Of a DNA stretch of 32,000 nt, positions 10,140-32,000 are shown one piece after another (the first letter of the stretch is position 1; the number at the start of each line of letters is the position of its first letter). This stretch comes from Psychrobacter cryohalolentis K5. Lineage in GTDB: Bacteria > Pseudomonadota > Gammaproteobacteria > Pseudomonadales > Moraxellaceae. Under the pieces are notes generated by a model. The model was not told the origin of the DNA and searched no databases. It worked only from the letters and a program-made list of their open reading frames with translations. The stretch lies in contig NC_007969.1 in NCBI RefSeq assembly GCF_000013905.1, positions 870,001 to 902,000 on the forward strand. Reading direction: 5' to 3'. A program made the translations under genes and the position numbers.

Positions 10140-10251
10140 TTTTGGTCAAATCTTAAATGCTTTGAAGCTTTACAATTATTGTTTAAATAGAAGCCCCGTA
10201 TCGTCATGAACTGACCCCCATAAGTTGGACACAACTTTTGGGGGTTATTTT

Positions 10252-11597: not shown

Positions 11598-11804
11598 TTA
11601 AACTGTCCAAGTTTAGGGGGTCAGTTCAATTGATTGCGGGGTTTTTTGCTGTGAGCAATGGCTGGTTTCTCTTATTATCTTATGTATAATATGGGAGCAG
11701 GCGGAAACCGTGGCTCTGTATGTTATTTCTCCTTTTCTATCTCGGGACGGACCGATACTTTGATAGGCACTTTTTGTTTGCAATCAAGTGCTTTGGAGTT
11801 TTGG

Positions 11805-14473: not shown

Positions 14474-14512
14474 AAAAAAAGCCGTTATCATGGATTTGAT
14501 AACGGCTTTTTT
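14474..14512. terminator. Bidirectional rho-independent terminator between the hydrolase gene and the C-C lyase-like gene
   Basis: GCCGTTATC (14481-14489) / GATAACGGC (14498-14506) form a perfect stem, flanked by A7 on the left and T6 on the right. Confidence 0.8.
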
Positions 14513-14538: not shown

Positions 14539-15627
14539 CTATAAGCGCGCTGTATAGTCGTTATTGCCATCATTAATGGTGCCAAAAACGTTAGCTCTAT
14601 TGACGATTTCGGTTGCCCAAGCACGATGGGTAGCAGGCTCTAGCATAGTATTGTTATATTTAAAGACCGCTTTTGCCTCGCTATGTAATATCGCCTGTGC
14701 CTCATCTAAAGTGCTAAGCGGTACGCAGTATGCTTGCTGTACCAAGGCAATCTGACTTGGATGAATAACGGTTTTTCCGACCAAGCCCAAGCTGACATCA
14801 CGCGTCAACTCTTGCATAAATAACGTAGGCTCATCCAAATACTCAAACACCGGCGCCGACAGATAAAAGCCATGGGGCACAAAACAGCCAAGCAGCTGGT
14901 AGGCTAGTGTACCAACAGGTGTATCATAGACAAGGCTATTCTTAGGACGGCGCAAACGCAGTGCTGCAAATAAATCATTACCACCAATACGCAAAGCAAA
15001 TACCGGCTGGCTAAAAGCTTCTTTGAAACCAATCGCCAGCTCTTGATTATGATGAGGATTAAACAACGCTGCCGTCTCAAGCGTTGGCATTAATAGCATG
15101 TCAGTACTAAGATTCTGGCATGCCATGCGCCAATTAGATAGACTGTACATATCGACTTTTGGCATCACAAAACCGTCAATCAAATCAATATGGGTAAAGC
15201 CCGATAACTGCTCTAACATGGCAGGATGGCGCGGACGTACAAATACCAACGGACGCGTTGGCTGCTCAGTCTGTATCTTGGTTTGTTGTGTTTCAGCTTG
15301 CTGTATCGGCTCATTGATACTATCGACGTGCGTTGCCCACGTATACAGCAGCGTCTGCAAGCGCTCAAGTGCCAACTCAACATCATTGTGGCTGACCGCA
15401 TCTTCTAGACAGATGATAATACTATTAATCGTCGGTAATTTATCACGCTTGATCACTTGCCAGATATCTTGGCGCGTCGCTGGCATATATAAGCTCGCTC
15501 CCAACTGATACGGATGATGCATGTTAGGTTTGAGCATAGCATGACGCTCAGTAATCAGATGCGCGTAAGACTGGGTGTTTTGATAAAGGTGGGACTCGTT
15601 TTTTGGCATATCTGACATAATGGGCAT
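14539..15627 (-). CDS. HpcH/CitE-like TIM-barrel C-C lyase (Ter-associated type)
   Basis: CitE/HpcH-like motifs: SLYMPATR, IIICLEDAV, RIGGNDLFAAL, GKTVIHPSQI. Last gene of the HAD, PRTase-like, lyase operon. Has a Q/T-rich internal insertion. Confidence 0.8.
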   Translation of the reverse strand: MPIMSDMPKNESHLYQNTQSYAHLITERHAMLKPNMHHPYQLGASLYMPATRQDIWQVIKRDKLPTINSIIICLEDAVSHNDVELALERLQTLLYTWATHVDSINEPIQQAETQQTKIQTEQPTRPLVFVRPRHPAMLEQLSGFTHIDLIDGFVMPKVDMYSLSNWRMACQNLSTDMLLMPTLETAALFNPHHNQELAIGFKEAFSQPVFALRIGGNDLFAALRLRRPKNSLVYDTPVGTLAYQLLGCFVPHGFYLSAPVFEYLDEPTLFMQELTRDVSLGLVGKTVIHPSQIALVQQAYCVPLSTLDEAQAILHSEAKAVFKYNNTMLEPATHRAWATEIVNRANVFGTINDGNNDYTARL

Positions 15628-15695: not shown

Positions 15696-16877
15696 TTAAT
15701 CGTCTGTAGCGCGCTGCTTAATAAGGGTAATCGCTTGATAAGGCAGTATTTTATCACCTAGTACGCTAATAGCGATATGTCGCTGTGTACATAAATGCCT
15801 TAATAATATAGTGTCGGGGTGCTCAGCGCTCGCTAACAAAATACGTTCAGGGTCGCGGCGTAGTATCGCGCGTGTCGCCTCAGCAATGGTCGGTTTAATA
15901 CGATTACGATTGCTGATATTGTATTCTGCTGCCAGCTTATCGACTAAGTCGGCCGTTTGATAGCGAGGTTGCTTATGTGTTGGCAAGCATTTCAAAGGTG
16001 TGTTTAATATACGCCTTGTCGCATCGATACAATCAATAAAGGCCAGACTATGATCTGCACTGATCAAATTATCATAAAAGACACTGCGATGCAGCCCCAA
16101 TTCCGGCTCAGTATATAAACTGCGTGATATAAGCCCTGATACAGTACTATTTAATAAACCTGACGGAATCAACCAGTCATCGATACTAGCAGCCAGCCAA
16201 GCAACACCAGCCGGATCAGCAAGGGTCAGTAGCGGTATAACATCCTGACCTTGATGGAAAATATTGGCAAAGTTAGGGTGGTTAGGATCGGAAAATGCTT
16301 TTAGACTATGCGCCAGTTCTTGATAAATCGCCCCTTTACCTGTCCAACCATCCACAAATACAATCGGGCTATGAGGATGATTATTTAATATCATCTTTAA
16401 AGCAACCGGATCAAGACCACGATCTCGTATAATACTGACGCCATAATGCACACTTGGTAGAGAGTAGCTGCTATTGGCAGTTGCTAATGCGCGTTGTAAC
16501 AGTACGCCTATTGGTAAACCGGCACGCACAAGACTGACTAAAATTAACGGGCGCTCATTATTGAAGTTTGACTGAAAAACTTGCTGTAGCGTATGGGCCA
16601 AATTGGTAATATCAGTTGCTGCTCTTACTTTTCCCTGCTCTAACGCCTCAATATATAGCTGCTCATGCATGGCACTTGGCGCGTCTTCCAAAGTCAGCAT
16701 ATCAGAATAATGACGCTGCCCACTTTGAATCAGTGCTTCTTTTTGACTGACAGGCACATCAGCAACGGCATCTTTATCAACGATATTGAGCAGCACAGTG
16801 ACATCGCTAGCAAGATAGCTGCCTGAGCCATATTGTGATAAATCGGCTGTTTTAATATTAGAATGGATTGAAGTCAT
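15696..16877 (-). CDS. PRTase-like protein of the Ter-associated family often annotated 'StiP'
   Basis: 393 aa. The PRPP-loop-like IVFVDGWTGKGAI is preceded by LILVSLVRAGLPIG. The separate C-terminal ~100-aa domain is reported in the literature as PELOTA-like RNA-binding. Context is with the HAD and CitE-like genes. Confidence 0.7.
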   Translation of the reverse strand: MTSIHSNIKTADLSQYGSGSYLASDVTVLLNIVDKDAVADVPVSQKEALIQSGQRHYSDMLTLEDAPSAMHEQLYIEALEQGKVRAATDITNLAHTLQQVFQSNFNNERPLILVSLVRAGLPIGVLLQRALATANSSYSLPSVHYGVSIIRDRGLDPVALKMILNNHPHSPIVFVDGWTGKGAIYQELAHSLKAFSDPNHPNFANIFHQGQDVIPLLTLADPAGVAWLAASIDDWLIPSGLLNSTVSGLISRSLYTEPELGLHRSVFYDNLISADHSLAFIDCIDATRRILNTPLKCLPTHKQPRYQTADLVDKLAAEYNISNRNRIKPTIAEATRAILRRDPERILLASAEHPDTILLRHLCTQRHIAISVLGDKILPYQAITLIKQRATDD

Positions 16878-16958
16878 AGTAGAAATAGTTGTACTCGTTT
16901 GATGACGGTTTAATAATAGATTAATAGCAGAATATCATTTAATAAAAGGTAGCGCTCA

Positions 16959-17765
16959 TCATTTAGCTGCAAATTTCTCATGTAGCTGTCCATGATTGGG
17001 CATGCCGTACCAGTCAAGTAATTGCAGAAATGGCAGATCTGCCAGACTGTCACCAAAACCGAAGCTTGGGCGCTGATGATCCAAATGCTGCTCCAACAAA
17101 AATTGTACCGCATGACGTTTATGAATAGCATGCGGCAATATTGCTAAATTATTAGCATTCACATGCACATAAAAAATCTCATCAAAATCTGGTATGAGCG
17201 TTGGTAATTGTATGGCTAACTCTGCCAATGCTTGATGGTCTTTTTGTGTGTGTTTGATCGCTATATAAATGGTCATCTCGCTATCGATAAAAGTATCTTT
17301 ATGCGGGGTGAGCTTTAAGTCGTTATGTACGTTATTGCAGCCATTCACCCACTCAGTCAGCTGACTGAGCTTATCTTGTACTGGAGCAAGCGCGTTATAC
17401 ATATGCTGCTGCCACGTGCTTAGTAGCTCACCATCAGACGCTAAAATGACCGCGCCATGGGTCAATACTTGCCAGCTATTAAAAGGCAGTTTGACGCGTT
17501 TAATTTCTTGACGATCACGTGCTGTGACAGCTATCAATTCAGTACTGGCAAATAGCCAATTAAAAAAGACCGCTTGGCGCTGACTCATAAAGCTTAACGG
17601 CTCACCTTGTTTATTGATGGTGGCGCAAACCAAATTTTCAGGTTCAGTAGTGGGTAATTCCCATGCATCAATTTTACGCTGAGTTTGAAAGAGCGTATCG
17701 TCCAAATCCATTAGCGCATAAGGTTTTACAATATTTAAGTTCGGTTGGAAAAATGGGGAGGTCAT
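16959..17765 (-). CDS. HAD-superfamily phosphatase (Ter-associated)
   Basis: Motif I LMDLDDTLF (DxDxT), motif II VTARD, motif IV GFGDSLADL. The ATG at 17765 (MTSPFF) is preferred over the track's TTG at 17777. Confidence 0.8.
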   Translation of the reverse strand: MTSPFFQPNLNIVKPYALMDLDDTLFQTQRKIDAWELPTTEPENLVCATINKQGEPLSFMSQRQAVFFNWLFASTELIAVTARDRQEIKRVKLPFNSWQVLTHGAVILASDGELLSTWQQHMYNALAPVQDKLSQLTEWVNGCNNVHNDLKLTPHKDTFIDSEMTIYIAIKHTQKDHQALAELAIQLPTLIPDFDEIFYVHVNANNLAILPHAIHKRHAVQFLLEQHLDHQRPSFGFGDSLADLPFLQLLDWYGMPNHGQLHEKFAAK

Positions 17766-18169
17766 GACGTTTTCCAAAGATAAAAATGATGATAAGACTG
17801 TTTATAGATGGCTTGGATACGAATATGTAAGGGAGGTGCAGCGCTGTTTTTTAAAACTGAGCATTACCTATTTATCAGACTTTAGCCAAATGCAGACAGT
17901 ATAACGATAATCATAAAAAAGGTCAGAATAAATCGGTAATAAAAGTGCAGAATTATCGCAAGAGGATTGGACGTAACTCATTTGGAGTTAGCATATAAAT
18001 ATAATAAACTCAGAAAATTGAGTAACCAAACTTTCCAAGTTTATTAAAGGGTGATTATGCAGACGGCAGGATAATACTAGGTTTCTTGTGATAGCGACTA
18101 TAGACTCAGCAACAATCACTGTCATATGTTTATACTATCATTTAAATAACAAAGAAATATTTGAATATC

Positions 18170-19141
18170 CTATCCATATATTTCTTCTAACCTTAGGCAA
18201 GAAACCAAGCGTCCTTCCCATTCACGTAGCTCAGGCTCAATTTCGCTACATATTGGTTTGGCATAGGGGCAGCGTTTATGAAGTGCGCAGCCACTTGGCG
18301 GATTAAGCGGACTAGGTAATTCGCCTTGTAGAGTCAGCTCTTTTTTATGACCCGTCACTGAAGGCGCTGCTGAGAGTAAAGCGATGGTATAAGGGTGTTT
18401 AGGATCATTATAAATAGCATCTTTAGCACCGTGCTCAACGGCCTTGCCTAAATACATGACCATCACGTCATCTGCTACGTGGCGTACGACAGAAAGGTTA
18501 TGCGAGATAAAGACATAGGCAGTATGATATTCATCTTGTAAATCCATAAATAGATTCAGTACTTGCGCCTGAATAGAGACGTCAAGTGCTGACGTTGGCT
18601 CATCAGCGACGACAATTTTAGGGTTGAGCATCATGGCACGGGCAAGAGCAATACGTTGGCGCTGACCGCCAGAAAACATATGCGGATAGCGACCGGTATG
18701 CTCAGGACGCAAACCAACGTGCTTCATCATTGCATGGACTTTGGTGCGTTTTTCTTCTTTGCTCAGCGTGGTATGAATGTCTAACGGTTCTGTGAGCTGA
18801 AAACCGATAGTATGACGTGGATTAAGACTGCCATAAGGGTTTTGGAATACCATCTGAATCTCAGTACGCAAGTTTTTAAGCGCACTTCTACTATAACTCG
18901 TAGTTGCCTCATCGTTAATAAATAACTCGCCACTGGTAGGTTCTTCTATCAAGGTAAGCTGGCGCGCCAAAGTAGATTTGCCACATCCTGACTCACCAAC
19001 GACTGCGAGAGTTTTCCCTGCTTCTAGCTCAAATGAGATGCCATTTAATGCCTTAACAAACGCTTTGCCTTTTCCTAAGCCTAGAGACACTTGATAGTGC
19101 TTATGTAAGTTATCTGCCTTTAAGACGATTTTATTACTCAT
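18170..19141 (-). CDS. dppF: Dipeptide ABC transporter ATP-binding protein DppF
   Basis: Walker [10 protein letters not shown], signature FSGGQRQR, Walker [13 protein letters not shown], and an oligopeptide-type C-terminal Cys-rich tail. Overlaps dppD by 4 nt. Confidence 0.9.
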
Positions 19142-20199
19142 ATTTCAGACTCCATCGTAGCGGTTTGAGTAGTCCGAGTAGGATGTTCGGGAAGGGTGGC
19201 GTGAATACAGCGGACTTCGCCATTTGGGGTTGTTAAGATAGGTGGTGGCACCTCACAAGCCGGCTCTTTATAGGGACAGCGAGGAGAGAGCAGACAGCCT
19301 GTAGGCCTGTCATATTGGCTTGGCACCACACCTGGTAAGCTATTTAATCTATCTTGTCCAACAGCCAGTTCAGGAATCGCTTGCAGTAGGGCTTCGGTAT
19401 AAGGGTGCGCAGGTTTTTGGAATATCTCTGGCACTGTACTGGTCTCGACCACTTGACCGGCATACATGACAGCGACATCACGAGCGTTTTGTGCGACTAA
19501 GCCCAAGTCATGAGTGATGAGCACCATTGCCATTTGCTTTTCACGTTGCAGGCGACTGAGTAAATCCATGATTTGAGCCTGAACGGTAACGTCGAGAGCG
19601 GTCGTCGGCTCATCAGCGATAAGCAGTTTTGGCTCGCAAGCCAGTGCCATCGCAATCATGACCCGTTGACTCATACCACCTGAAAGTTGGTGCGGATAGA
19701 CACGTAGGCGATTCTTAGCATCTGGCATCTCAACCAGCTCTAATAACTCTAACAGACGCTGCCGTACTGCTGCGCCGCGCAAGCCAAGATGGGTAGTTAA
19801 TACTTCTCCCATTTGCATCTCGACCGTAAAGCTTGGATTCAGGCATGACATGGCGTTTTGAAATATCATCGAGATATCTTTGCCGATAATCTTGCGCTTT
19901 TGTTTTGCTGGCATGGTGAGGAGATTCTTGTCATCAAAGTTAAGACGATCAGCAACGACAGTGGCAGAAGAGGGTAATAAACCCATCAGTGCCATCATAG
20001 TGACCGATTTACCAGAGCCTGATTCACCGACAACCGCGACGACTTCTCCTTGTTTTATTTTTAAAGAGACATCATCGACCGCACGGAATGCTCGTGCTCC
20101 TTCTCCAAAAGTCACCGATAGATGCTCAATATCGAGGAGTAATGGGTTGTCTGTGGCAAGGTTATTTGCTATTGGGCTATTTACTTGAGAGTCGTTCAT
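19138..20199 (-). CDS. dppD: Dipeptide ABC transporter ATP-binding protein DppD
   Basis: Walker A GESGSGKS, signature LSGGMSQR, Walker [13 protein letters not shown]. Position in the operon. Confidence 0.9.
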
Positions 20200-21113
20200 T
20201 AAGATACCTGCTTCAATTTTGGATCTAAGGCATCACGCAGACCGTCACCCGTTAGATTGATGGACAATGCGGCTAAGAAAATCGCCACACCGGGCCAAAT
20301 CGCTAACCACACATTGCTCTGGATATATTGGCGAGCAGTACCTAGCATCGCACCCCACTCAGCATCAGGGGGTTGAACACCGAAACCTAAGAAACCAATC
20401 GCGCCGGCTTCCAAAATAGCAGTAGAGAAAATCATGGTCGCTTGGACGATTAATGGCGCCATACAATTGGGTAATATCGTGATAAATAATAATCTTAAGA
20501 CGCCTGCACCCATGACCTGTGAAGCAATAAAATACTCACGTTGCAGCTCAACCATTGCTGTTGCGCGGGTCAACCTAATAAAAGGCGGCGTACATACCAA
20601 GGCAATAGTAATGATGGTGTTGGTCATCGAAGGCCCTAAGATAGCGGCAATGATAATGGCGAGCAGCAAGCTTGGATAAGACATCAAGATATCATTCACT
20701 AGCATGACCGCTTTGCCCCAAACCTTGGGCCAAAAGGCAGCGCTTAGTCCTAACGATACGCCCACAATCATCGCTATCGAAGTGGCGCTGATACCGATGA
20801 ATAATGAATAACGTGCGCCGTGCATGACGCGCGAGAGCGTATCACGACCGGCATCATCGGTGCCCAAAAAGAACATCGAATCACCGCCATTAAAGAAGGA
20901 GGGCGGCAATTGCTCTTTACCGGTGAATAATTCATAAGGGTCATAAGGGGCAATGGTAGGGGCCAAGATTGCGACGATGACCATCAGCATCAAGACTATA
21001 AAACCCAGTACCGCGCCTTTATTTCGGCAAAAGGTGTATAAAAACAGCTGCCAAGAAGTCGGCGGCTTAGGCGCAACCGGAGCAATGTCAGAAGGAACTA
21101 CAGAAGGCTTCAT
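20199..21113 (-). CDS. dppC: Dipeptide ABC transporter permease DppC
   Basis: Colinear with E. coli DppC ([53 protein letters not shown]). AAGGA RBS at 21121-21125. Confidence 0.9.
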
Positions 21114-21348
21114 TGGATATTCCTTTAGTGAATCAGACCTTGTTTTACTCCACTGGCTTGCTTACTTTATTAGGATAAGTCGCTTATGGTTTCAGCTAAC
21201 TTAGCATGCGCTTATCTTCTGTAAGCTGAGTAATGCAAACTTAGGGATACAAGATCTTTATGAGCACTATGGGTAATTATTAAAAACTATAAATAGCAAT
21301 TGTCGATACATTAATAATGCATCAAATGGGCTTCACCCTAACAATAGA

Positions 21349-22365
21349 CTATGAAGAATGGCGAATTCTAGGATTAATAAATCCATATAAAATATCGATC
21401 ATTAAGCTCACCAGAATCAGAGCAGTAGCGACCAATAAAATACCATTTTGTACAATGGGATAATCACGTGTAAAGAAACCATCTAATAACCAGTTGCCGA
21501 CACCGGGCCAACTAAAAATAGTCTCAGTGATAATGGCACCAGCCAGCAATGTTGCCATCTGTAATCCCACTACAGTAACCACGGTAATGAGCGCATTACG
21601 CATCACGTGAATTAAAATCACACGTTTTGGTGATAGACCTTTGGCTCTTGCAGTACGCACATAATCTTCATCTAACACTTCAAGCATCGCCGAACGTGTC
21701 ATACGAGCAATCATAGCTAGAGGAATAGTAGATAGGGCAACCGAGGGCAAGATGAAATGTTTTACAACGTTCCAAAAGGCGCCGGGCTCACCAGAGCTTA
21801 AAGAACCTAGTAGCCAAGACCCGTATAAAGGTTTGACGTCTAGGAACTGCGCGACAGAGATAACGCCAGAGACCGGTAGTAGACCTAGATAGTGGGCGAA
21901 AATACCCGTTAGGATAGGACCAAGTAAATAGATCGGCATAGAGTAGCCGGCAAGTGCGCCAGACATTAATGTATAGTCCAGCCAAGTACCACGGCGTAAG
22001 GCAGCTAGGATACCCAGACTAATACCAACGATACTCGCTATCGTAATCGCGCAAAGTGCAAGCTCTAATGTCGGCACAAAATGCGCAAAAAAGTCCTGCA
22101 ATATCGGTGTGCGGGTACGAAAGGATTCACCAAAGTTACCTTGCAGTATCCCAGTGAGATAATCCCAGTATTGTACGGGTAACGGTTTATCTAGACCAAG
22201 GCGGGCTAAAGCCTGCGCATGTAGCTCAGGATCAACCATGCGCTCTCCCATCATAATCTCAACCGCATCGCCAGGTACGAGGCGAATAAGAATAAAAGTC
22301 GATAGGGTTAAGCCGATATAGACAGGAACTAAGATTAAAATCCGGCGTAGAATATAAAGTAGCAT
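21349..22365 (-). CDS. dppB: Dipeptide ABC transporter permease DppB
   Basis: From MLLYILRRILILVP it is colinear with E. coli DppB and gives the same 339-aa length (EDYVRTARAKGL, ETIFSWPGVGNWL, NPRIRH). The track start at 22422 is an extension. Confidence 0.9.
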   Translation of the reverse strand: MLLYILRRILILVPVYIGLTLSTFILIRLVPGDAVEIMMGERMVDPELHAQALARLGLDKPLPVQYWDYLTGILQGNFGESFRTRTPILQDFFAHFVPTLELALCAITIASIVGISLGILAALRRGTWLDYTLMSGALAGYSMPIYLLGPILTGIFAHYLGLLPVSGVISVAQFLDVKPLYGSWLLGSLSSGEPGAFWNVVKHFILPSVALSTIPLAMIARMTRSAMLEVLDEDYVRTARAKGLSPKRVILIHVMRNALITVVTVVGLQMATLLAGAIITETIFSWPGVGNWLLDGFFTRDYPIVQNGILLVATALILVSLMIDILYGFINPRIRHSS

Positions 22366-22508
22366 AGCTCGGCTCGATTTTATAAAAGTGGCTTTTACCA
22401 GATATAGCTCAGGCTCAGACAAAGAGGGCTGGAACAGAATCTCTGAACCAGCCGCAAACGTATATAAAGCAATGACTATAAAGTAAAAGGCGTCACTAGG
22501 GTTTGTTA

Positions 22509-22538
22509 GGTACTGGTATTGAATCTAATACCAGTACC
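22509..22538 (-). promoter_or_regulatory. Perfect 12-bp stem-loop in the dppA-dppB spacer (candidate mRNA-stabilising or attenuating hairpin, REP-like)
   Basis: GGTACTGGTATT-GAATCT-AATACCAGTACC, about 40 nt downstream of the dppA stop. No U-tract follows on the coding strand. A third partial arm CACTGGTATT lies at 22548-22557. Confidence 0.6.
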
Positions 22539-22577
22539 GAATGTAGCACTGGTATTAGCTAATGCTATTTAATAGCT

Positions 22578-24221
22578 TTATTCAATATCAACGCCATCAA
22601 AGCGAATGGAGCCGAGTGGGCTAATTTTGTAGTCTTTCACATTAGGGGTGGTCAATACCGTCACAACTGAGTTGGCAACTGTGGTCCAAGGCAATTGGTC
22701 TTTAAAGATAACCTGAGCCTGCTTGTAATTAGCAATACGCTCATCTTGGTTGGTATTTGCACGCGCATCCATGACCAGCTTATCAAACTCTGCATTACAC
22801 CAGCGCGAGTAGTTGTTACCATTGACGGCATCACAAGATAGTAAAACACCTAACCAGTTATCAGGATCGCCATTATCGCCTGTCCAACCGGCTAGGATCG
22901 CTTCAGGTTCACCTTTGCCAGCACGCTTTAGATACTCGCCCCACTCATAAGTCACGAGCTTGGCTTTGACCCCAATTTTAGCCCAATCAGATTGAATCAT
23001 TTCTGCCATGAGCTTAGCATTGGGATTATAAGGACGCTGAACGGGCATATACCATAAGTCGATTTCTAAATCTTTAGCACCCGCTTCAGCCAGTAGGGCT
23101 TTGGCTTTTTCGATATCGTAAGGCGCATCTTTGATCTCATCGTTATAGCCCCACTGCGTTGGTGGCATTGGGTTGCTTGCTTTGATACCAGAACCTTGAT
23201 ATACCGCATTGATGATGGCGTCTTTATTGATTGCCATATCGAGAGCGCGGCGAACATTGACATCTTTTAGATCGGGTTTTTCAGTATTATAGCCTAAATA
23301 ACCGACGTTAAAGCCTGCATCATCTAGTACGTTTGCTTTGCCAGATTTTTTGGCAGAGTCCACTTCAGATGGATTAGCGTAAGCCGAGACATTACATTCG
23401 CCTGCTTGTACTTTTTGGGCACGAACCGCTGAGTCTTTGGTGATGACAAAGACGAGGTTATCGATATGAATGTTGTCTTTGTTCCAGTAGTCAGGATTTT
23501 TGGTATAACGAATCTGCGCATCTTTTTGATACGAAGTAAAGACGAAAGGTCCGGTACCGACTGGTTTGGTATTTAGATCAGCTGCATTGCCAGCGTCTTG
23601 TAACTGCTTGGCATACTCTGCAGAATGCACATAGGCGAACGGCATTGCTAGGTTTTGTAAGAATGGCGCGTTGGTCTCAGTCAGAGTGATTTTGACCGTA
23701 TAATCATCGACTTTTTCTACTTTGTCGATAATATCAGGTAAGCCCATGCCTACTGAATATGGGAATTCAGCTGGATAGTCTTTATTAAAAGCAAAGCCTG
23801 TATCGGTAAGACGTTCGATGGTAAAGATAATGTCATCAGCATTGAAGTCACGAGTTGGGGTGAAATAATCGGTCTTGCCGAATTTGACGCCTTTACGTAG
23901 ATTGAGCGTATAAGTCTTACCGTCTTCGCTGATTTCCCAGCTTTCGGCTAAGCCTGGCTCGATTTCGGTTTCGCCACGTTTAAACTGTACGATACCATTA
24001 AAAATAGGATAAGCACTGGCATCAAAGTCAGTACCTGCCGTATATTGCGCAGGGTCAAAGCCGGCAGGGCTACCTTCTGAACAGTAAATTAAGGTCTTAG
24101 CGGCTTTGGCATCACTACCGGCATCTGCCGTTTTATCCGCAGTTTTATTGTCGCCGCTACAGGCGCTGACGCCTAGCGTTAAGGCTGCTAATAAGGTGAG
24201 CTTGAAAAATGGAGTTTGCAC
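22578..24221 (-). CDS. dppA: Dipeptide-binding periplasmic protein DppA, lipoprotein form
   Basis: Colinear with E. coli DppA (KTLIYCSEGSP.GF, GLAE.WE.SEDGKTYT, MPVQRPYNPNA..MAEMIQ.DWAKIGV.AK.VTYEWGEYLKRA, GWTGDNGDPDN). GTG start with AGGA upstream. The signal peptide ends in lipobox VSAC. Confidence 0.92.
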   Translation of the reverse strand: MQTPFFKLTLLAALTLGVSACSGDNKTADKTADAGSDAKAAKTLIYCSEGSPAGFDPAQYTAGTDFDASAYPIFNGIVQFKRGETEIEPGLAESWEISEDGKTYTLNLRKGVKFGKTDYFTPTRDFNADDIIFTIERLTDTGFAFNKDYPAEFPYSVGMGLPDIIDKVEKVDDYTVKITLTETNAPFLQNLAMPFAYVHSAEYAKQLQDAGNAADLNTKPVGTGPFVFTSYQKDAQIRYTKNPDYWNKDNIHIDNLVFVITKDSAVRAQKVQAGECNVSAYANPSEVDSAKKSGKANVLDDAGFNVGYLGYNTEKPDLKDVNVRRALDMAINKDAIINAVYQGSGIKASNPMPPTQWGYNDEIKDAPYDIEKAKALLAEAGAKDLEIDLWYMPVQRPYNPNAKLMAEMIQSDWAKIGVKAKLVTYEWGEYLKRAGKGEPEAILAGWTGDNGDPDNWLGVLLSCDAVNGNNYSRWCNAEFDKLVMDARANTNQDERIANYKQAQVIFKDQLPWTTVANSVVTVLTTPNVKDYKISPLGSIRFDGVDIE

Positions 24222-24380
24222 TGTGATTACATCCTGTATAAATCGTTAGATAATTATCGATTGATAGCACGACAACGACGTTAGACGCCGTTGATATCGA
24301 ACTCTAATCGATAAACCTTTAATTCCTTTTAAAGTATTTATCAATTCAAATTATTTCAGGCAATGACAAATTATCAGAAT

Positions 24381-24409
24381 TTGAGACACCTCAGAATGGT
24401 GTGTCTCAA
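24381..24409 (-). terminator. Candidate stem-loop separating the upstream PRTase operon from dppA
   Basis: TTGAGACAC (24381-24389) / GTGTCTCAA (24401-24409) form a perfect 9-bp stem with an 11-nt loop. Minus-strand trailing sequence is ATTCTGATAATTTG. Function is uncertain. Confidence 0.3.
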
Positions 24410-24697
24410 GTGTTTGGTCTTCTAATAGTTGATATGTTGACACTGAATAAGCAAATGAATAGACCGAATATATAGGTAAATATGAGGTTGTGCAAGGTAT
24501 CTACAGCGCAAATATGAATTTTTTTATGCTATGGACATCTTTTTTGTTATTAATGAGGTATTTAACCTCCGTAAAATCACAGGCATATATAAGTAAACTT
24601 TGTTTTAGAAAGATATAATAAATATTCTAAAGATGTTCATATTACGGCTATGACAATCCATTATCAGTAGCTCGTAATATGCATGTTAAATGCACGT

Positions 24698-25975
24698 CTA
24701 TTTAGGACTCACCATCAACACATTATCCAAACCTTTCCACATGGTATCCACACTATCAGCCGACGTTTCCACACACAATACAATCAAATCCCACTCATTT
24801 GGCTCAACGTTATAAGCAAAGTTGGTCATACCAAGGCCATAATTATCATGAAAGCTTAACATCGTGCCAATACCTCTACCAAGTGCAATCGGTGAGCGTG
24901 TCAATGCGCTAAAATTCACCGTATTATTGCTGTTATCTAAATTCGTATACTGCTCAAGCCATTCCGCCAATAAGAAGGGCAACCAGACAAATTCATTACT
25001 GCCCAGTACCAATATTTTTTGTGGCAATTGAGCGTTATTAAATGCGTTTTGGCCATCAAAACTTGCAAATGCAGTTTGGAAACTTGCTAGATAATCAGCA
25101 AAGCCATTCGTGCTATCTAGCGTTGGAAAGCGCCCCCAATTACCGGTATTGCCCAAAGGTTGACTACCAGCTTCGGTCGTATCAACCGATGGCATAATGA
25201 TAGGCTCAGGGTTGGGCGCATCAGTCCATTTCCAAGCGCCAGATAGTAAATGATGGCGGTGAAAATCAATGTTTGGGAGACGGGTGGCAATCGTATCATT
25301 GGCGTTAGCATCAGACTCACTTTGATTCTGATTTAGAGACCAATCAACCAAGGTTGTGAGATGCACTTGCTCTAGTTGGGTCAACCCAGCTTCACGTAAT
25401 GCTGTGACGACATTAACGCAAGTATTACCCGTTGATGCTTCATCATCGACCATAATTAGCGTTTTACTGGCAAGTAGTTGCGCTTGCGTCATTTTATCGG
25501 CACTTTGATAAATCAGATGCTGACTGGCATGACTGTGGTCTTCGCTAAAAGTGGTCAATAAAGAATCGCTACTGTTGTCATCATGCTGGGCATGACGAGT
25601 AGAATTCAGCAGTAACGCTTGTGGATAGCGCGTTTGTAGCGCTTGGTGCACACCGGCAGATAAGCCAACCGCCGTCTCTGCCATACCTATGACCAAAATC
25701 GGCTCAGGCAAATCATCAGGTACTAAGTTTGCCAAATCAGTAAAGGCGTCACGCATGATGCTTGGTGCCACCGGAATATGACGACCTAACACTTTTGAGA
25801 CAAACAAAAACGCCCGTTTTGGGTTGATACGTTGAGCAAAATCAAGCAAATCTTCTAGCTGATAATGGCTACTTTCTTTAAGGTCGTTATTACCACTAGC
25901 AGCGTTGGTCTGATAGGTCAGATCAAGCGTACCGCGAGGTAAGGTGATGGTCGTGTTGTGTTGCTTATTTGGCAT
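24698..25975 (-). CDS. Type-I phosphoribosyltransferase-domain protein with a long C-terminal extension (Ter-associated PRTase_2/TRSP-like)
   Basis: Classic PRPP-binding loop TLIMVDDEASTGNT. Upstream ILVIGMAETAVGLSAG. About 200-aa C-terminal domain of unknown function. Strong GGAAGGAA RBS. Confidence 0.8.
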   Translation of the reverse strand: MPNKQHNTTITLPRGTLDLTYQTNAASGNNDLKESSHYQLEDLLDFAQRINPKRAFLFVSKVLGRHIPVAPSIMRDAFTDLANLVPDDLPEPILVIGMAETAVGLSAGVHQALQTRYPQALLLNSTRHAQHDDNSSDSLLTTFSEDHSHASQHLIYQSADKMTQAQLLASKTLIMVDDEASTGNTCVNVVTALREAGLTQLEQVHLTTLVDWSLNQNQSESDANANDTIATRLPNIDFHRHHLLSGAWKWTDAPNPEPIIMPSVDTTEAGSQPLGNTGNWGRFPTLDSTNGFADYLASFQTAFASFDGQNAFNNAQLPQKILVLGSNEFVWLPFLLAEWLEQYTNLDNSNNTVNFSALTRSPIALGRGIGTMLSFHDNYGLGMTNFAYNVEPNEWDLIVLCVETSADSVDTMWKGLDNVLMVSPK

Positions 25976-26149
25976 TCATATTCCTTCCGGATTTTTATAG
26001 ATTTAAAATTATTTCCTAACTCTTATAATTCATTAGAATAAACTTAATACGGCAGTTGTAAGTGTTATGCTGCTGTTGTATTTTTTGAGTCAGGTAGTTG
26101 ATATGAGTGATTAATATATAATAATGCTAAAGACTGAAATAATCTTATA

Positions 26150-26575
26150 TTAACCATTGTATTGCATAGGTATAGAAAACAAGCTTAGAATAATATTTAA
26201 GCCAAAATTAAACGCTGGTGCAAGTACAAGACTTAGATAGGTATGACCAAAATAGTAAGTAAGAGCCAACAAGATAGGTATTGCAATAATATCTATCGCA
26301 ATCTCATATTTAGGAAAAACACTTTGCTGAATGTTCTCTGACATGATTACTATCGCGGCAAACACTAGCAATAAAGGCAAGATTATTATTGCTATACCTA
26401 TAAACAATGCTAAACCACCAAACATCATGAAAAAACCAAATATGATTGATAGTCCATTCATAATGGATGAACTTGTTTCAATACTATGGGAAAGATTTCT
26501 CGCGATGTCAAAATAAGCATTAGGGAGAGCTTTTAACTCATATACTAAAAAATCATAAATAGAATTAATAATCAT
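26150..26575 (-). CDS. Small hypothetical integral membrane protein (141 aa, about 3-4 TM helices)
   Basis: The ORF fills the gap between the ATP-grasp and PRTase genes on the same strand. Long hydrophobic stretches (LSIIFGFFMMFGGLALFIGIAIIILPLLLVFAAIVIM; IDIIAIPILLALTYYF). Markedly AT-rich. No family recognised. Confidence 0.55.
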   Translation of the reverse strand: MIINSIYDFLVYELKALPNAYFDIARNLSHSIETSSSIMNGLSIIFGFFMMFGGLALFIGIAIIILPLLLVFAAIVIMSENIQQSVFPKYEIAIDIIAIPILLALTYYFGHTYLSLVLAPAFNFGLNIILSLFSIPMQYNG

Positions 26576-26614
26576 ATTTAAAAATCTTATAAAATATTTC
26601 GATAGATGAAAAGC

Positions 26615-27781
26615 TTAAACTTCTGAAGCATCTTCTTCAATCTTTACACTCACCATAATAGAACGTACTTGGCACGGTGTAATTTGCTGTGCGATATCTG
26701 CCAGTTTCGGCTTCTTACTTAAACCGAGCCAATAAGCAAAACCAACTTGAGTTAGATCTACGCCGCTATGAGTGGTGTAATCAATACCACCAGAGGGGCG
26801 ACTATTAATCTCAAGCACACGATGCTGACCATTATCATCCGCTTTAGTCTGGACACTAACAATACCATCACAGCCGAACGTTTTTATCAGTGGAATGACC
26901 ACATCCATGACCGATTGCTCATAACCAATATGTTGAATTTTCCCCGTTTTATAACGGGTAATAGCAGCCAACACTTCGCCGTATTCACAGACGACATCGA
27001 TAGAGTATTCTTGTCCTGATAAATAAGGCATTAATAGCATCGGAATAGGGCGCTCATGCACCATAAGACTGTTGGTATAAGCATTGATAAATTGCGCGGT
27101 ATTGATTTTCTTCTCTTCGGTAAAGTATAGATGCTCAAAACTGTCGTATGGCTCACCTTCTTCTTTACCTGTCTCTTTAACTTTACCTAAGCGCCAAAAT
27201 CCTTGGGCAAAAATCCCCGTCACTGGTTTGACACATAAAGGCTGATGACCATGGGTGGCAAGTAACGCCTCAAGCTCTGCGACAGTATCAAAGCGCCATG
27301 CATCTGCGACAGGGATATCATGCTCATGGCACTGCTGCATAAAGGCAAACTTATCATCGATGGATTCCAGTGCTGAAACGCTGGTCGCACCTGTCAATAA
27401 ACGGATACCTGCTGCTGCAAATTTTTCGCGATGAGCTTCGTAATCAATGCCATTGCGTCCAGTAAGCAACACTTTCACGTTGTTTTTCTGAGCTTGTTCT
27501 AACACAAATTGCCAACGTGGCATCAATGGCTCAACAGATTCGAGCACTGCTTGTTCATCGCTATCTGCGGTGCTAATAGAAGGCTCGCGGTAAATGATGT
27601 CGGCAAATTCAAAAATCTCAGGTCTATTATGACGATGTGAGGCAACGATATGAAAGGGCATGCTAGAGTGAGCTTTTAGGGTTTGCAGGCTAGCTAACAT
27701 ATCACGCTGGCTTGACTGACCTTCAGCCAACCAAGCAGCGCTTAACTTTGTATGATGACTATTGTTAACAGGGTTATCCAT
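26615..27781 (-). CDS. ATP-grasp ligase (Ter-associated ATP-grasp type)
   Basis: ATP-grasp core: CVKPVTGIFAQGFW, YLSGQEYSIDVV, and the Mg/ATP loop HRVLEINSRPSGG. Divergent from the TerD-fold gene. Confidence 0.8.
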   Translation of the reverse strand: MDNPVNNSHHTKLSAAWLAEGQSSQRDMLASLQTLKAHSSMPFHIVASHRHNRPEIFEFADIIYREPSISTADSDEQAVLESVEPLMPRWQFVLEQAQKNNVKVLLTGRNGIDYEAHREKFAAAGIRLLTGATSVSALESIDDKFAFMQQCHEHDIPVADAWRFDTVAELEALLATHGHQPLCVKPVTGIFAQGFWRLGKVKETGKEEGEPYDSFEHLYFTEEKKINTAQFINAYTNSLMVHERPIPMLLMPYLSGQEYSIDVVCEYGEVLAAITRYKTGKIQHIGYEQSVMDVVIPLIKTFGCDGIVSVQTKADDNGQHRVLEINSRPSGGIDYTTHSGVDLTQVGFAYWLGLSKKPKLADIAQQITPCQVRSIMVSVKIEEDASEV

Positions 27782-28087
27782 AATTCTCTTTGCACTCTCT
27801 TAAATAATAGGGTTGTGGATCACTCGATATCGTCATCATAAAGTGATTAGCAATTTAATATATGATCGAATAATTTCAGACATGGCATTTATACATAACG
27901 GGCTCTATTATATACAAATGCTAGATGTTATAAATGTTTCCAATTAAATAGCATCAAGGATTTTTACTTTTTTTATGATGTTTTATAAGATGCTGGTTCT
28001 GATTAAGGTTGTAATGCCATCCATGCTACTATATGGCGATAGTTAACCTCACTCATATAAGTAAATAATAAATAACGTAAAGGATAA
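27782..28087. promoter_or_regulatory. 306-bp AT-rich divergent intergenic region, presumed promoters for the ATP-grasp operon and the TerD-fold gene
   Basis: Inferred from geometry only, as it separates divergently transcribed genes. I could not identify a convincing operator; the best is a 6-bp inverted repeat ATCACT-N17-AGTGAT. Confidence 0.4.
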
Positions 28088-29374
28088 ATGATGAGTCAAC
28101 CTCAAGCTTTAATTGCAGGTGCTAACGCACCGCTGCCAACGGATAATATTAGCATTCGTATTTTAAGCCAAAATGCCATCGACTGTGCGGCTTATCGCCT
28201 GACGACTGAAGGTAAAGTACGCGGCGATGGCGATATGATATTTTATGGGCAGACGCGTAGCGATGATGGTAGCGTGAGCTTTCGCGGTCATGACAGTGAT
28301 GGATTTTTTGATATCAATCTACCTGCACAGCCAGCAACTATTGAAAAGATTGCGTTAGCATTTTCTAGTGCGCAGACGTTGGCTCAAGTCGGTGATGTGG
28401 ATATTCAAGTACTACAAGGCAGTCAAGTGTTGATAACTTGCCAATTAAGTGCTGTTGGACGTAATGAAAAAGCTATCATCTTAGCTGAATGTTATCGTCG
28501 GCAGGGCAATTGGAAGTTCCGATTTATCGCTCAAGGTTTTGAAGGTGGCTTAAAACCTTTATCTGAGCATTTCGGTGTAGAGATTGCCGATGAAGCACCA
28601 GCTCAAAGCCCTATACAAAATCAGTCACAAGGGCAAGCTCAGCCTATTAATACGCAGCGACCAATCAATACGCAAAAAGCTAGTAGTGCGCCTCAGACAA
28701 CTACGCCACCGCCGATTCCTGCTGGCTCTACCAATCCTTCAATCAACCTAAGTAAAATTACTTTAACCAAAAATCAATCTAGTATCAATCTCAAGAAACG
28801 TGATGATTTTGGCAAAATATCGGTCAACCTAGACTGGAACCAACGTCCAGATGTCAGCAAGCAAGCACCCAAAAAAGGGCTGCTTGGCGATTTATTTAAG
28901 CAGCATAAAGCTGGTGGAATTGATCTCGATGTTGGTGCGATGATTCATCTGAAAAATGGTGAAAAAACGCTTATTCAAGCGTTGGGAAGTCGTTTTGGTA
29001 GCCTACAGTCAGCGCCATACGTTCTATTGCGTGCCGATGATAGAACAGGACAGGTAAGCGGCGGTGAATGGCTAGATATCAATGGGCAACAGTGGTCACA
29101 GATTGAAGAAGTATTTATCTTTGCTTTCATTTACGAAGGCGCACCAAATTGGGCGCAAACTGATGGGGTAGTGACTATTCATGTACCCGACCAGCCACCG
29201 ATTGAAACGCGTTTGACAGAAGGTACAGGTAACTTACCGATGTGCGCTATTGCGCGTCTGGTCAATCAGCAAGGCAGTATCAACGTTGAACGTATCAACC
29301 AATACTTTAAAGGACATCAAGAGATGGACAAAGCCTTTAATTGGGGCTTTAGCTGGAAACGTGGCAGTAAGTAG
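28088..29374 (+). CDS. Two-domain TerD-fold protein (TerA-like tellurite/stress-resistance family)
   Basis: N-domain: GKVRGDGDMIFYGQ..DGSVSF and ECYRRQGNWKFRFIAQGFEGGL match the TerD core. A Q/P-rich linker follows. C-domain: INLKK...ISVNLDWN, GGIDLDVGAM, ADDRTGQVSGGE are TerD Ca-site-like motifs. Confidence 0.85.
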   Translation: MMSQPQALIAGANAPLPTDNISIRILSQNAIDCAAYRLTTEGKVRGDGDMIFYGQTRSDDGSVSFRGHDSDGFFDINLPAQPATIEKIALAFSSAQTLAQVGDVDIQVLQGSQVLITCQLSAVGRNEKAIILAECYRRQGNWKFRFIAQGFEGGLKPLSEHFGVEIADEAPAQSPIQNQSQGQAQPINTQRPINTQKASSAPQTTTPPPIPAGSTNPSINLSKITLTKNQSSINLKKRDDFGKISVNLDWNQRPDVSKQAPKKGLLGDLFKQHKAGGIDLDVGAMIHLKNGEKTLIQALGSRFGSLQSAPYVLLRADDRTGQVSGGEWLDINGQQWSQIEEVFIFAFIYEGAPNWAQTDGVVTIHVPDQPPIETRLTEGTGNLPMCAIARLVNQQGSINVERINQYFKGHQEMDKAFNWGFSWKRGSK

Positions 29375-29410
29375 TCGTATGAGCTGACCTTGTCTTATTG
29401 CTGAAGTCTT

Positions 29411-29445
29411 AAACTAGTGATGGTTTGAAAAACCGTTACTAGTTT
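29411..29445 (+). terminator. Candidate terminator or structured element after the TerD-fold gene
   Basis: AAACTAGT..GGTTT-GAA-AAACC..ACTAGTTT hairpin, nested inside an outer 7-bp pairing TTGTCTT (29390-29396) / AAGACAA (29459-29465). The T-tract is weak. Confidence 0.35.
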
Positions 29446-29498
29446 AGTTATTGGCGCCAAGACAAAGCTGATATTCACCATCAAAATGAGATATTTCA

Positions 29499-31247
29499 AT
29501 GTGGGAAATATTATCGCAGATGCTATCAAGAATGAGTATCATCATTACGATTGCTTATTTAATCACTAGACTGCCTATATTTAGAAAAATGATTTCCCAG
29601 CGAGTCGGAATAGGTGGTTTATTTGTTTTGATAATAATATTTGGTATGTTTGGAGTCATTGGTAATTATACGGCGCTTGTTGTAGAGCCGGGTAACCAAA
29701 AAGTCATATCCAATATATGGAATCCTACACTTCAATCAAACAATGCAGTAGCGGATACAAGAAATATCGGTATCATCATCGGTGGCTTTTTTGGTGGTCC
29801 AATAGTTGGCATAGGTGCTTCAGTTATTGCCGGTGCCCATCGTTTGCTGATGGGTGGTTTTATCAGTGGAGCCACTTTCTGGGTATCTATCTTAGGTGGC
29901 TGCTTTGCAGGATGGTTTGGATATAAATGGCGCGGAATGGGTCTAATTAAGCCAAGATATATGTTTCTTACCAGCATTATCATTTTAACGATTCAAATTT
30001 TAGCTATTCCAGTCTTAACTACCGATCATACTACGGCACTCAAATTAATTGCTTTTACAGGCCCACCCATTATCATCATCAACAGTGTTGGTATATGGAT
30101 TTGTGCGATGATTTTTTATAATGTAGTAGTAGAAGAGGATAGAACAAGAGCAAGTCAAACGGTCAAAACATTTTCAATTGCTGATCAAACCTTCTCGTTA
30201 TTCCGATCGGGTCTCAATGAAAACTCAGCTAAAAAAAGTACAAAAATTATTAAAAAATTAACTGCTGTAGAGCATGTAGCGATTACTAGAGGTATTCGTG
30301 AATTAGCTTATACTGGAACATTGAATAATCAAAAGAGAAATGAAGAAGAAGACCTTGCATCACGTAAGCTGGCTTTATCAACGGGAAAATCAGTATTAAA
30401 TGAGCCAAAGTCAAAATGGCTGTTTTCAAAGAAATCAAATAGTAGAGCTTCTGTAGTAGTGCCATTTTGTGTTCAGAATAAAACGATTGGAACCATTACT
30501 TTTTATTATGCAAGCTCATTACATATTACTGTCGTTGAAAAAGAACTGATTGAAGGTTTAGGCAAGCTTTTCTCAAATCAATTAGAGCTTGGTGAGATTG
30601 AACGTCATAATCAACTATTACAAAACGCAAAAATTGAGGCGTTACAATCGCAAATTCAACCCCATTTTTTATTTAATGCATTAAATACCATTGTAGCTTT
30701 ATGTAGAATCGATCCAATGCTAGCGCGAGATTTATTGCTACACTTATCTACTTATTTGCGAAATAACTTGTCAGGCATTGCTGATTTTTTGGTACCGGTA
30801 TACAAGGAAATGGAGAATGTACAAGCTTATTTGGCCATTGAACAAGCTCGTTTTCCAGATAAGTTTGTAGTCAATATAGAAGTAGCTCCTGATTTGATTG
30901 AGTGTCTTATTCCTCCATTTATCATTCAGCCTTTGGTCGAGAACGCAATAAAGCACGGTGGATTTAAAAAGATAGAAGCTAAAGGTGCAGTTCATATCGA
31001 GATTAAAAAAATATCAGAACTCTTAATTTTGATTAAAGTTTCTGATAATGGGATTGGCGTTGAGCTAAATCGAATAGTAGATCTAGGGGAACGTGTTGTA
31101 AAATCCTCTAAAGATGGAAGTGGCACCGCGTTATTCAATATAAAAGAGCGACTTACGGCACTGTACAGCCAAGATGTACGCTTTAATATAGACAGTGATG
31201 TTGGCAAAGGGACTTGTGTGTCGATTATATTGCCGGTTAAAACTTAG
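29499..31247 (+). CDS. LytS/BtsS-type sensor histidine kinase (5TM-LYT, GAF-like, His_kinase, HATPase)
   Basis: N-terminal polytopic region with GGFFGGP and GG-rich helices. LQSQIQPHFLFNALN is the His-box of the LytS family. ENAIKHG is the N-box. DNGIG and GSGTAL form the ATP lid. Confidence 0.88.
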   Translation: MWEILSQMLSRMSIIITIAYLITRLPIFRKMISQRVGIGGLFVLIIIFGMFGVIGNYTALVVEPGNQKVISNIWNPTLQSNNAVADTRNIGIIIGGFFGGPIVGIGASVIAGAHRLLMGGFISGATFWVSILGGCFAGWFGYKWRGMGLIKPRYMFLTSIIILTIQILAIPVLTTDHTTALKLIAFTGPPIIIINSVGIWICAMIFYNVVVEEDRTRASQTVKTFSIADQTFSLFRSGLNENSAKKSTKIIKKLTAVEHVAITRGIRELAYTGTLNNQKRNEEEDLASRKLALSTGKSVLNEPKSKWLFSKKSNSRASVVVPFCVQNKTIGTITFYYASSLHITVVEKELIEGLGKLFSNQLELGEIERHNQLLQNAKIEALQSQIQPHFLFNALNTIVALCRIDPMLARDLLLHLSTYLRNNLSGIADFLVPVYKEMENVQAYLAIEQARFPDKFVVNIEVAPDLIECLIPPFIIQPLVENAIKHGGFKKIEAKGAVHIEIKKISELLILIKVSDNGIGVELNRIVDLGERVVKSSKDGSGTALFNIKERLTALYSQDVRFNIDSDVGKGTCVSIILPVKT

Positions 31248-31259
31248 GGAAGGGTTTGG

Positions 31260-32000
31260 ATGAATGTTTATGTTGTTGAAGACGAAGTGTTAGCTAGACA
31301 AGAGTTGATTTATCTTTTGAAAGACACAGGAAAAATTAACGTAGTTGGTGAAGCAGATGACATACATCAAGCTTTATGGGATATTAATGAAAAGCAGCCA
31401 GACGCAGTGTTCTTAGATATAGAGCTTGAAGGTGGCAATGGTCTTGAGCTGGCCAAGCAGTTTAGTAATATGAAGAAACCGCCTATGGTTGTGTTCGTCA
31501 CTGCTTATGATGAATATGCGTTGAACGCTTTTAAATTAGATGCGATAGATTACATAGTCAAACCAATTGATAGAGGCAGGCTGATAAAAGCAGTAGAGAA
31601 ATTAATAAAATTGGGTAGCGTGCCGAATTCAGAAAATCTCGTTAAACCTCTGCCTTTACCTTCAACCCATAATGACAAAAAGCATAGTATTACTGTAAAG
31701 CAAGCAGATCGAATCATAATTATTAATACTAAAGATATTTTATATATCGGTACTGAGAATCGGCAAGCTTATATTCAAACATTAGAGAAAAAATACCCAA
31801 CAGATACTTTGCTTTATAAGATGATGGATAAGCTCGGAGATAATTTTATTCAAGTACATAGAGGTTATATTGTAAATACCAAACAGATAGCGGCCTTAGA
31901 ACCTTGGTTCAATCGAACCTATTTGATTATATTAAAAGATGGTTCTAAAATTGCAGTAAGTCGCTCTTATGTCAAAGCAGTCAAACAAGTGCTTGGATTG
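31260..32000 (+). CDS. LytTR-family response regulator; no stop codon before the window edge at codon 247
   Basis: My own translation, as it is not in the track. MNVYVVEDEVLARQEL...DAVFLDIELEGGNG...DYIVKP is the receiver domain. QVHRGYIVN...AVSRSYVKAVKQVLGL is the LytTR DNA-binding domain. Starts 13 nt after the kinase stop. Confidence 0.85.
   Translation, partial: MNVYVVEDEVLARQELIYLLKDTGKINVVGEADDIHQALWDINEKQPDAVFLDIELEGGNGLELAKQFSNMKKPPMVVFVTAYDEYALNAFKLDAIDYIVKPIDRGRLIKAVEKLIKLGSVPNSENLVKPLPLPSTHNDKKHSITVKQADRIIIINTKDILYIGTENRQAYIQTLEKKYPTDTLLYKMMDKLGDNFIQVHRGYIVNTKQIAALEPWFNRTYLIILKDGSKIAVSRSYVKAVKQVLGL

Follow-up and report, generated by a model that had tools for sequence, protein, structure and literature searches.

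Does the chromosome of Psychrobacter cryohalolentis K5 carry a minimal, self-sufficient ter unit, or a part of something larger, and what might its enzymes make? The question is raised by a stretch of 32,000 nucleotides (NC_007969.1, positions 870,001 to 902,000; hereafter the window, numbered from its first nucleotide), in which a gene for a predicted TerD-fold protein is divergent from genes for an ATP-grasp ligase, a 141-amino-acid (aa) membrane protein and a phosphoribosyltransferase (PRTase). An initial annotation of the window had read this group as half of a Ter-associated module for a nucleoside-like metabolite, and as a minimal chromosomal version of the system. The analysis presented here suggests another answer: in the best explanation, to which we attach a probability of roughly 60%, the window contains the central part of a vertically inherited chromosomal Psychrobacter ter locus, which was stretched by three insertions and uses the published nucleoside-like-metabolite mechanism.

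All five enzymes of the Ter-associated module are predicted in the window

Domains were assigned with Pfam profiles. As judged from these profiles and from motifs, the window holds all five enzymes of the published Ter-associated module, apparently full length and with their catalytic motifs intact (Table 1). The ATPgrasp_Ter ligase carries the E-x-N-x-R motif inside LEINSRPSGG (aa 323–332). In the PRTase_2-TRSP protein, the phosphoribosyl pyrophosphate (PRPP) loop TLIMVDDEASTGNT lies at aa 172–185 and the conserved T-R-S-P of the TRSP domain at aa 358–361. Profile matches of the HAD-superfamily phosphatase were weak; this protein has the HAD motif I (DLDDT) and motif IV (GDSLAD), and the place of its gene between the PRTase and StiP genes is kept in relatives. 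Translation of the HAD gene probably starts at ATG 17765, for a product of 268 aa as annotated in an identical public chromosome (see below), rather than at the TTG at 17777 of the mechanically defined open reading frame (ORF). The PRTase-like domain of StiP has a PRPP-loop-like sequence, IVFVDGWTGKG, and the last protein, the C-C bond lyase, is weakly similar to the structures of citrate lyase and malyl-CoA lyase. PDB sequence searches with the ATP-grasp, PRTase_2-TRSP and StiP proteins detected no solved structure.

The HAD, StiP and lyase genes at 14.5–17.8 kb thus join the PRTase and ATP-grasp genes to make up the five-enzyme set, in the canonical order ATP-grasp, PRTase_2-TRSP, HAD, StiP, C-C lyase. 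The genes do not form a single compact operon, as they do in most relatives: the gene for the 141-aa protein (orf141) and a 6-kb dpp operon break up the module. The four ORFs of the initial annotation were recovered at the same coordinates and on the same strands, and both motifs that it quoted, LEINSRPSGG and the PRPP loop, are present in the proteins. Its families PRTase_2, TRSP, ATPgrasp_Ter and TerD were borne out by profile searches, far above chance, and its proposal of a half module with the remainder at 14.5–17.8 kb held, the remainder being the HAD, StiP/PELOTA and C-C lyase genes.

Table 1. Positions of the features discussed in the text; coordinates are those of the window unless a related locus (L) is named.
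Feature	Position	Strand	Description
ATPgrasp_Ter amide ligase (putative), module gene 1	26615–27781	-	388 aa; PF15632 5.2e-33
PRTase_2-TRSP, type-I PRTase (putative)	24698–25975	-	425 aa; PF15609 1.4e-53, PF12500 3.9e-16; motifs
HAD-superfamily phosphatase (putative)	16959–17765	-	Pfam Hydrolase_3 4e-5, HAD-IIB 7e-5 (weak); motifs
StiP (putative)	15696–16877	-	divergent PRTase-like domain and C-terminal PELOTA_1; PF11202 8.9e-82, PF15608 2.9e-23
C-C bond lyase (putative), last module gene	14539–15627	-	TIM-barrel, CitE/HpcH-like; PF15617 C-C_Bond_Lyase 1e-97
TerA-like protein (predicted)	28088–29374	+	428 aa; N-terminal TerD aa 30–166, P/Q/T linker, C-terminal TerD-fold aa ~222–428
orf141, small multi-pass membrane protein	26150–26575	-	141 aa; strongly hydrophobic segments
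Dpp/Opp-type peptide ABC transporter operon	18170–24221	-	Pfam: SBP_bac_5, two permeases, two ATPases
LytS histidine kinase	29499–31247	+	Pfam; GC 36%
LytTR response regulator	31260–32000	+	window ends at its stop codon
Conserved block with sigma-70-like promoter	27904–27936 (promoter 27907–27934)	-	TTTATA, 16 nt, TATAAT, towards ATP-grasp gene
Second conserved block, candidate TerA promoter	28020–28043	+	CCATGCTACTATAT...; ~45 bp 5' of TerA ribosome-binding site
Intrinsic-terminator-like hairpin	14475–14512	-	16-bp stem then T run, directly after lyase stop codon
Slot-region example in a relative	L004:7151–8395	-	
Slot-region example in a relative	L001:6854–8424	+	
Slot-region example in a relative	L011:784–1770	+	

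The divergent gene encodes a TerA-like protein

The 428-aa protein encoded opposite the ATP-grasp gene is predicted to be TerA-like, with a TerD fold in both of its domains. Its N-terminal half matched Pfam TerD (PF02342; 2e-27 over aa 30–162) and aligned to Klebsiella TerD (2kxt; E 3e-17), and a 50-residue low-complexity linker rich in P, Q and T joins the two domains. The Pfam TerD profile missed the C-terminal half (aa ~215–428), both in this protein and in 76 related two-domain proteins, and a 76-sequence profile reached TerD structures via the N-terminal half alone, not via the C-terminal half. The identification of the protein as a two-domain one follows from a profile-profile comparison (hhalign), in which the C-terminal domain aligned in register with the N-terminal domain (E 7e-5, 129 columns), and from an AlphaFold2 model of aa 215–428 obtained with 40 homologues (pLDDT 82.4, pTM 0.81). 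This model matched the TerD-family structures 2qng, 2kxt, 2qz7 and 3ibz (E 1e-7 to 9e-7, probability 1.00, TM 0.55–0.69), and a fold search with it returned nothing but the TerD fold below E 0.01. The two-domain TerD fold proposed in the initial annotation is therefore supported by Pfam for the N-terminal domain and by the model together with the profile-profile match for the C-terminal one. Compared with the known TerD and TerA structures (2kxt, 2kxv, 3ibz), the fold appears to be common to both domains, but the C-terminal domain of the window protein is too divergent for the Pfam TerD profile.

The C-terminal half belongs to a large family, with at least 611 clusters at 50% identity (E<=0.001), in which it mostly forms the C-terminus of proteins of 380–430 aa; two-domain members are often named TerA by their sources. 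In the C-terminal domain, D279-L-D281 and D317-D-R-T-G...G-E327 are invariant or nearly so in the 76 relatives, and the N-terminal domain has IDC at the site where TerD has DLD. The DxD strand and the GDN/DDRTG...GE loop are known as Ca2+-binding acidic motifs from the Klebsiella TerD structure; by inference, the C-terminal domain would be the only one of the two in TerA to keep the acidic Ca2+ ligands of TerD. It was also observed that the TerA gene begins with two ATG codons in tandem (28088–28093), and that the ribosome-binding site AAGGA (28080–28084) is better spaced for the second of them, at 28091.

The window ends just before a ter gene cluster

In a BLAST comparison, positions 16150–32000 of the window were 100.000% identical over 15,851 bp to the public chromosome CP022043.2, from which the ter core beyond position 32000 was read. 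This record had come up in a look-up of the exact orf141 protein sequence; an exact-sequence look-up with TerA gave no match. Past the window end this chromosome encodes DcuC, a TerZ-like TerD protein (202 aa), AIM24, a TerD protein (191 aa) and TerC; the TerZ-like gene lies at a window-equivalent position of ~33.8–34.4 kb, ~1.8 kb beyond the end. The same ter cluster is present in Psychrobacter sp. P2G3, in P. glacincola and in four contigs (with a TerA homologue ~94% identical), where it ends with a further TerD gene and RlmL, and TerA is followed by the terZ-AIM24-terD-terC cluster in all related loci that extend far enough. The initial annotation had described the unit as lacking terZ, terB, terC, terE, terF and TerY. 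This is literally true inside the window, but it reflects where the window ends, and the 'minimal' reading is an artefact because CP022043.2 carries the ter core just past that point. That TerA and the half module should form a self-sufficient chromosomal unit without terZ, terC, terD and terE, as the lack of any further ter gene inside the 32-kb window might suggest, is therefore extremely improbable.

The position of the locus was compared across related species. Species-representative genomes were scanned with an alignment of the PRTase, which gave 80 loci: Psychrobacter accounts for 69 of them, and Moraxella, Faucicola, Enhydrobacter and others for the remaining 11; 30 reference proteins were mapped onto the 80 loci and the arrangements were then counted. 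Counts for the slot that separates the PRTase gene from the ATP-grasp gene refer to 62 loci, and those for the gap between the PRTase and HAD genes to the 67 loci with both flanks visible. The Psychrobacter backbone reads RlmL, TerE-like, TerC, TerD, AIM24, TerZ-like and TerA on one side, and divergently ATP-grasp, slot, PRTase, HAD, StiP and lyase on the other, followed by an alpha/beta hydrolase and an enoyl-CoA hydratase. All five enzymes are visible in 60 of the 69 Psychrobacter loci, and 58 of these 60 also have TerA. The TerZ-like gene directly adjoins TerA in 54 of 58 loci and is separated from it by LytS in the other 4. In nearly all Psychrobacter species the locus occupies one fixed site, between RlmL and the enoyl-CoA hydratase gene. 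The genes do not follow the classical collinear order terZ-terA-terB-terC-terD-terE; TerA lies on the opposite strand and the order is TerZ-like, AIM24, TerD, TerC, TerE-like.

Three insertions and a variable slot

In the window strain, this otherwise conserved locus of fixed position carries three uncommon insertions: orf141, the dpp operon and a LytS-LytTR-DcuC group. In four of the 67 Psychrobacter species loci in which both flanks are visible, the PRTase and HAD genes are separated by the dpp operon; a fifth dpp locus (L015) is on a contig that stops before the HAD gene, and the operon is not present in the Klebsiella plasmid locus described below. It is a lineage-specific insertion and no conserved part of the ter system. 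Its junctions showed no flanking direct or inverted repeats and no recognisable target duplication, in repeat and empty-site homology checks. The LytS and LytTR genes, together with DcuC past the window end, are a self-contained cassette, which a minority of species carry as an insertion separating the TerZ-like gene from TerA.

orf141 had no protein-family match. Its homologues fall into nine clusters of 60–98% identity, all exactly 141 aa long with zero indels and with many invariant positions; this uniform length, together with the hydrophobic segments, identifies orf141 as a genuine gene. Its GC content is 31%, vs about 44% in the neighbouring genes. The gene was found in none of the 62 Psychrobacter species loci counted for the slot, and is known from the window, the identical chromosome, one short contig, two contigs with a 60%-identical homologue and the remaining homologue clusters. 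The initial annotation had counted the 141-aa membrane ORF as part of the unit. This cannot be upheld, given its absence from these 62 loci and the empty slot in 14 of them; orf141 is rare incidental cargo and not a system component.

The interval from the ATP-grasp gene to the PRTase gene (equivalent to 25976–26614 in the window) is a variable slot. Where it is filled, varying combinations are found of a TerD-trypsin fusion, an MHYT sensor with a 234-aa V4R-like protein, an MFS transporter, putative RNA-targeting NYN with OST-HTH genes, and a DnaJ-like protein; NYN and OST-HTH are sometimes accompanied by an extra TerD, and the protease domain of the TerD-trypsin fusion is similar to the effector of retron type XI (E 2e-18). 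These contents might indicate that the slot is dedicated to output or sensor genes that are swapped, the module being a conserved signal generator with exchangeable effectors, by a logic like that of CBASS or Thoeris, and the recurring peptide transporters might hint at a product or precursor linked to peptides; we consider this rather unlikely.

Elsewhere in the window, IS3-type transposase domains were found in two adjoining plus-strand ORFs (10225–11597; HTH_28/HTH_Tnp_1, then rve/rve_2/rve_3), which adjoin a chlorhexidine-efflux gene (BTP/AceI-type, 11658–12248).

Candidate promoters and terminator

The divergent TerA and ATP-grasp genes are separated by an intergenic region of 306 bp that contains two blocks conserved across Psychrobacter species, one with a sigma-70-like promoter sequence directed towards the ATP-grasp gene and one that is a candidate TerA promoter (Table 1). 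At the other end of the module, the strong hairpin predicted 3' of the lyase gene probably marks the end of the minus-strand module. Rfam had no match anywhere in the window, which leaves no riboswitch explanation for the regulation.

Related modules outside Psychrobacter

Loci L081–L089, from Moraxella osloensis, Moraxella sp., Enhydrobacter sp. and one record labelled 'Streptomyces cinereus', carry the five-enzyme module alone. In the Moraxella and Enhydrobacter loci no TerA, TerD, TerC or AIM24 was found within 10 kb, even at E<0.01. The 'Streptomyces cinereus' record is 60% identical to the Moraxellaceae protein and looks like contamination or mislabelling. In the M. osloensis locus L084, the ATP-grasp gene and an OPT oligopeptide transporter gene are divergent, and an M20 peptidase lies alongside. 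Matches to 'DppF' beside Moraxella modules were rejected as the generic ABC ATPase of a taurine-type transporter; there is no dpp operon at these loci.

PRTase homologues were found in 2,562 plasmid records, at ~40–44% identity over 93–96% of the length. A PRTase_2-type protein is also encoded by the jumbo Acinetobacter phage vB_AbaM_ME3 (KU935715.1 / NC_041884.1, 210987–211979; 27% identity, 92% query cover), consistent with the near-complete Ter system reported in this phage (PMC7824862).

Proposed mechanism and alternative explanations

The chemistry and the signalling role proposed for the locus are those predicted by Anantharaman, Iyer and Aravind (2012), as represented in later articles (PMC11994780, PMC7824862, PMC8115787), applied here to the observed gene content, motifs and synteny and to the predicted folds. 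In this model, the PRTase would join PRPP to a small base or precursor that is probably pyrimidine-like, the ATP-grasp ligase would add an amide-linked group, the CitE-like lyase would supply or trim a carbon unit, and the HAD enzyme would remove the 5'-phosphate to give a diffusible nucleoside-like compound. The TerD-fold proteins (TerA, TerZ, TerD and TerE), with the membrane protein TerC, might then detect this compound, or act on it, under envelope or chalcogen stress. The linkage expected from this model is present, TerA adjoining the module and TerZ-like, AIM24, TerD and TerC genes following in the identical chromosome. Several points weigh against it. TerB was not seen in the related loci L001, L002 and L004, and in the published model it is TerB that links the module to TerC and TerD. 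The ter core lies outside the window, so that this part of the reading rests on the identical public chromosome. Because the Moraxella modules have no Ter proteins within 10 kb, adjacent Ter proteins may be dispensable for the product. A literature search found no metabolite, enzyme activity or phenotype demonstrated for this locus or for any such module; the initial annotation had likewise stated that neither metabolite nor mechanism has been demonstrated, and no report to the contrary was found. In addition, the dpp operon puts 6.9 kb between the module promoter and the HAD-StiP-lyase genes, so that these may not be co-expressed with the rest of the module in this strain.

This last point could also mean that the locus is a decaying relic, in which orf141 and dpp broke the operon, so that joint production of the enzymes has ended and they yield no product. 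The distance between the PRTase and HAD genes is tens of bases in most species (~55 bp in L001, ~80 bp in L004) vs 6.9 kb in the window, where the interval includes two AT-rich intergenic stretches, of 476 and 392 bp, and no conserved promoter was identified 5' of the HAD gene. However, the five genes are full length with their motifs intact, and the dpp arrangement is kept in several species: in the dpp-bearing loci, the visible ATP-grasp, PRTase, HAD, StiP, lyase and TerA genes have uninterrupted frames and their products are 70–92% identical to those of the window, a signature of long-term purifying selection after the insertion. Read-through from dpp or an internal promoter might also serve the downstream genes. 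Decay of the split module is thus quite unlikely. The enzymes could instead make a metabolite that does not act through Ter proteins, for instance a salvage intermediate or a natural product of the peptidyl-nucleoside type, the ter linkage in Psychrobacter being historical. Besides the five-gene loci of Moraxella and Enhydrobacter, the presence of two different peptide transporters at the module, namely OPT in M. osloensis and, in five Psychrobacter species, Dpp, would fit such a role. Yet linkage to the TerD family recurs in 58 of 60 Psychrobacter loci and on the enterobacterial plasmid, as well as in Bacillus (PMC11994780), and the ter genes of Moraxella may sit elsewhere in the genome; a Ter-independent product appears unlikely.

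A primarily anti-phage role, with the module as the source of an alarm nucleoside and the slot genes as interchangeable effectors, was also considered. Inhibition of phages has been mapped to the ter cluster of R478 (Whelan 1995, as cited in PMC5822837 and PMC9933665), slots of relatives hold the TerD-trypsin gene, with its retron type XI-like protease, and the NYN/OST-HTH genes, and the PRTase of the jumbo Acinetobacter phage points in the same direction. Against this, PADLOC-DB 2.0 gave no convincing match for the window proteins, nor for the TerZ-like, AIM24 and TerC proteins: its one marginal match was PRTase_III-A (E 1.6e-4 over 65 residues), and the six other module and TerA proteins had none. 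Moreover, a fixed genomic site in nearly all Psychrobacter is the behaviour of a core-genome locus rather than of a defence island, and the slot of the window strain holds orf141 alone. We regard a primarily anti-phage function as improbable, and retain the inherited, insertion-stretched Psychrobacter ter locus as the best explanation.

Use of the natural variants

Ter loci occur widely, and those of Klebsiella have been connected with infection and with fitness in the gut. The main value of the present locus is that the genus supplies natural variants for identifying the metabolite of the module. Psychrobacter, which is non-pathogenic and culturable, and Moraxella together offer a series of compact modules, modules split by a transporter operon yet intact, modules with differing slot cargo and modules without Ter proteins. 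These variants can serve as controls for heterologous expression and metabolomics, and for testing TerD-fold proteins as receptors of the compound.

Comparison with known ter systems

On plasmids, the module is known beside terZABCDE in the IncHI2 and IncFIB groups (R478, pK2044-type). The locus of Klebsiella pneumoniae pK230_rmpA2 (L010) has the same five families in the same order, divergent from a TerD-family gene. There, the module is one compact operon that goes on into DUF4236, CopG, VWA/TerY, TerX, PP2C and kinase genes and faces terZ-terA-terB-terC-terD-terE, whereas in the window it faces TerA alone and is split by orf141 and dpp. Compared with the plasmid ter systems, TerB, TerY and TerF were not seen in the window-type locus.

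Among the module genes, a phenotype has been reported for StiP alone: according to the account in PMC11994780, its loss in Acinetobacter baylyi causes tellurite sensitivity and altered cell morphology (Reichert 2013). The A. baylyi protein was reported to be a cysteine protease; in the comparative-genomics model, StiP is a second PRTase. The A. baylyi and window proteins belong to the same Pfam family and both come from Moraxellaceae; the window protein has the PRPP-loop-like motif and a PELOTA domain.

The closest described system is that of P. glacincola BNF20, a cluster that comprises terA, terZ, terC and terD as well as terE, with TIGR00266 (AIM24), in which terA is reversed and terB is reported to be absent; the same article describes tellurite resistance of a Psychrobacter strain (PMC5822837). 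With terA opposite to the other ter genes, no terB and AIM24 inside, this is the same locus as that studied here. Since the Psychrobacter ter cluster has already been published (PMC5822837), the locus does not represent a new type of system. The text of that article contains neither 'ATP-grasp' nor 'phosphoribosyl', and thus leaves the biosynthetic genes unmentioned. The window strain differs from the BNF20 description by the additional LytS-LytTR-DcuC, dpp and orf141 insertions, which are absent from most species.

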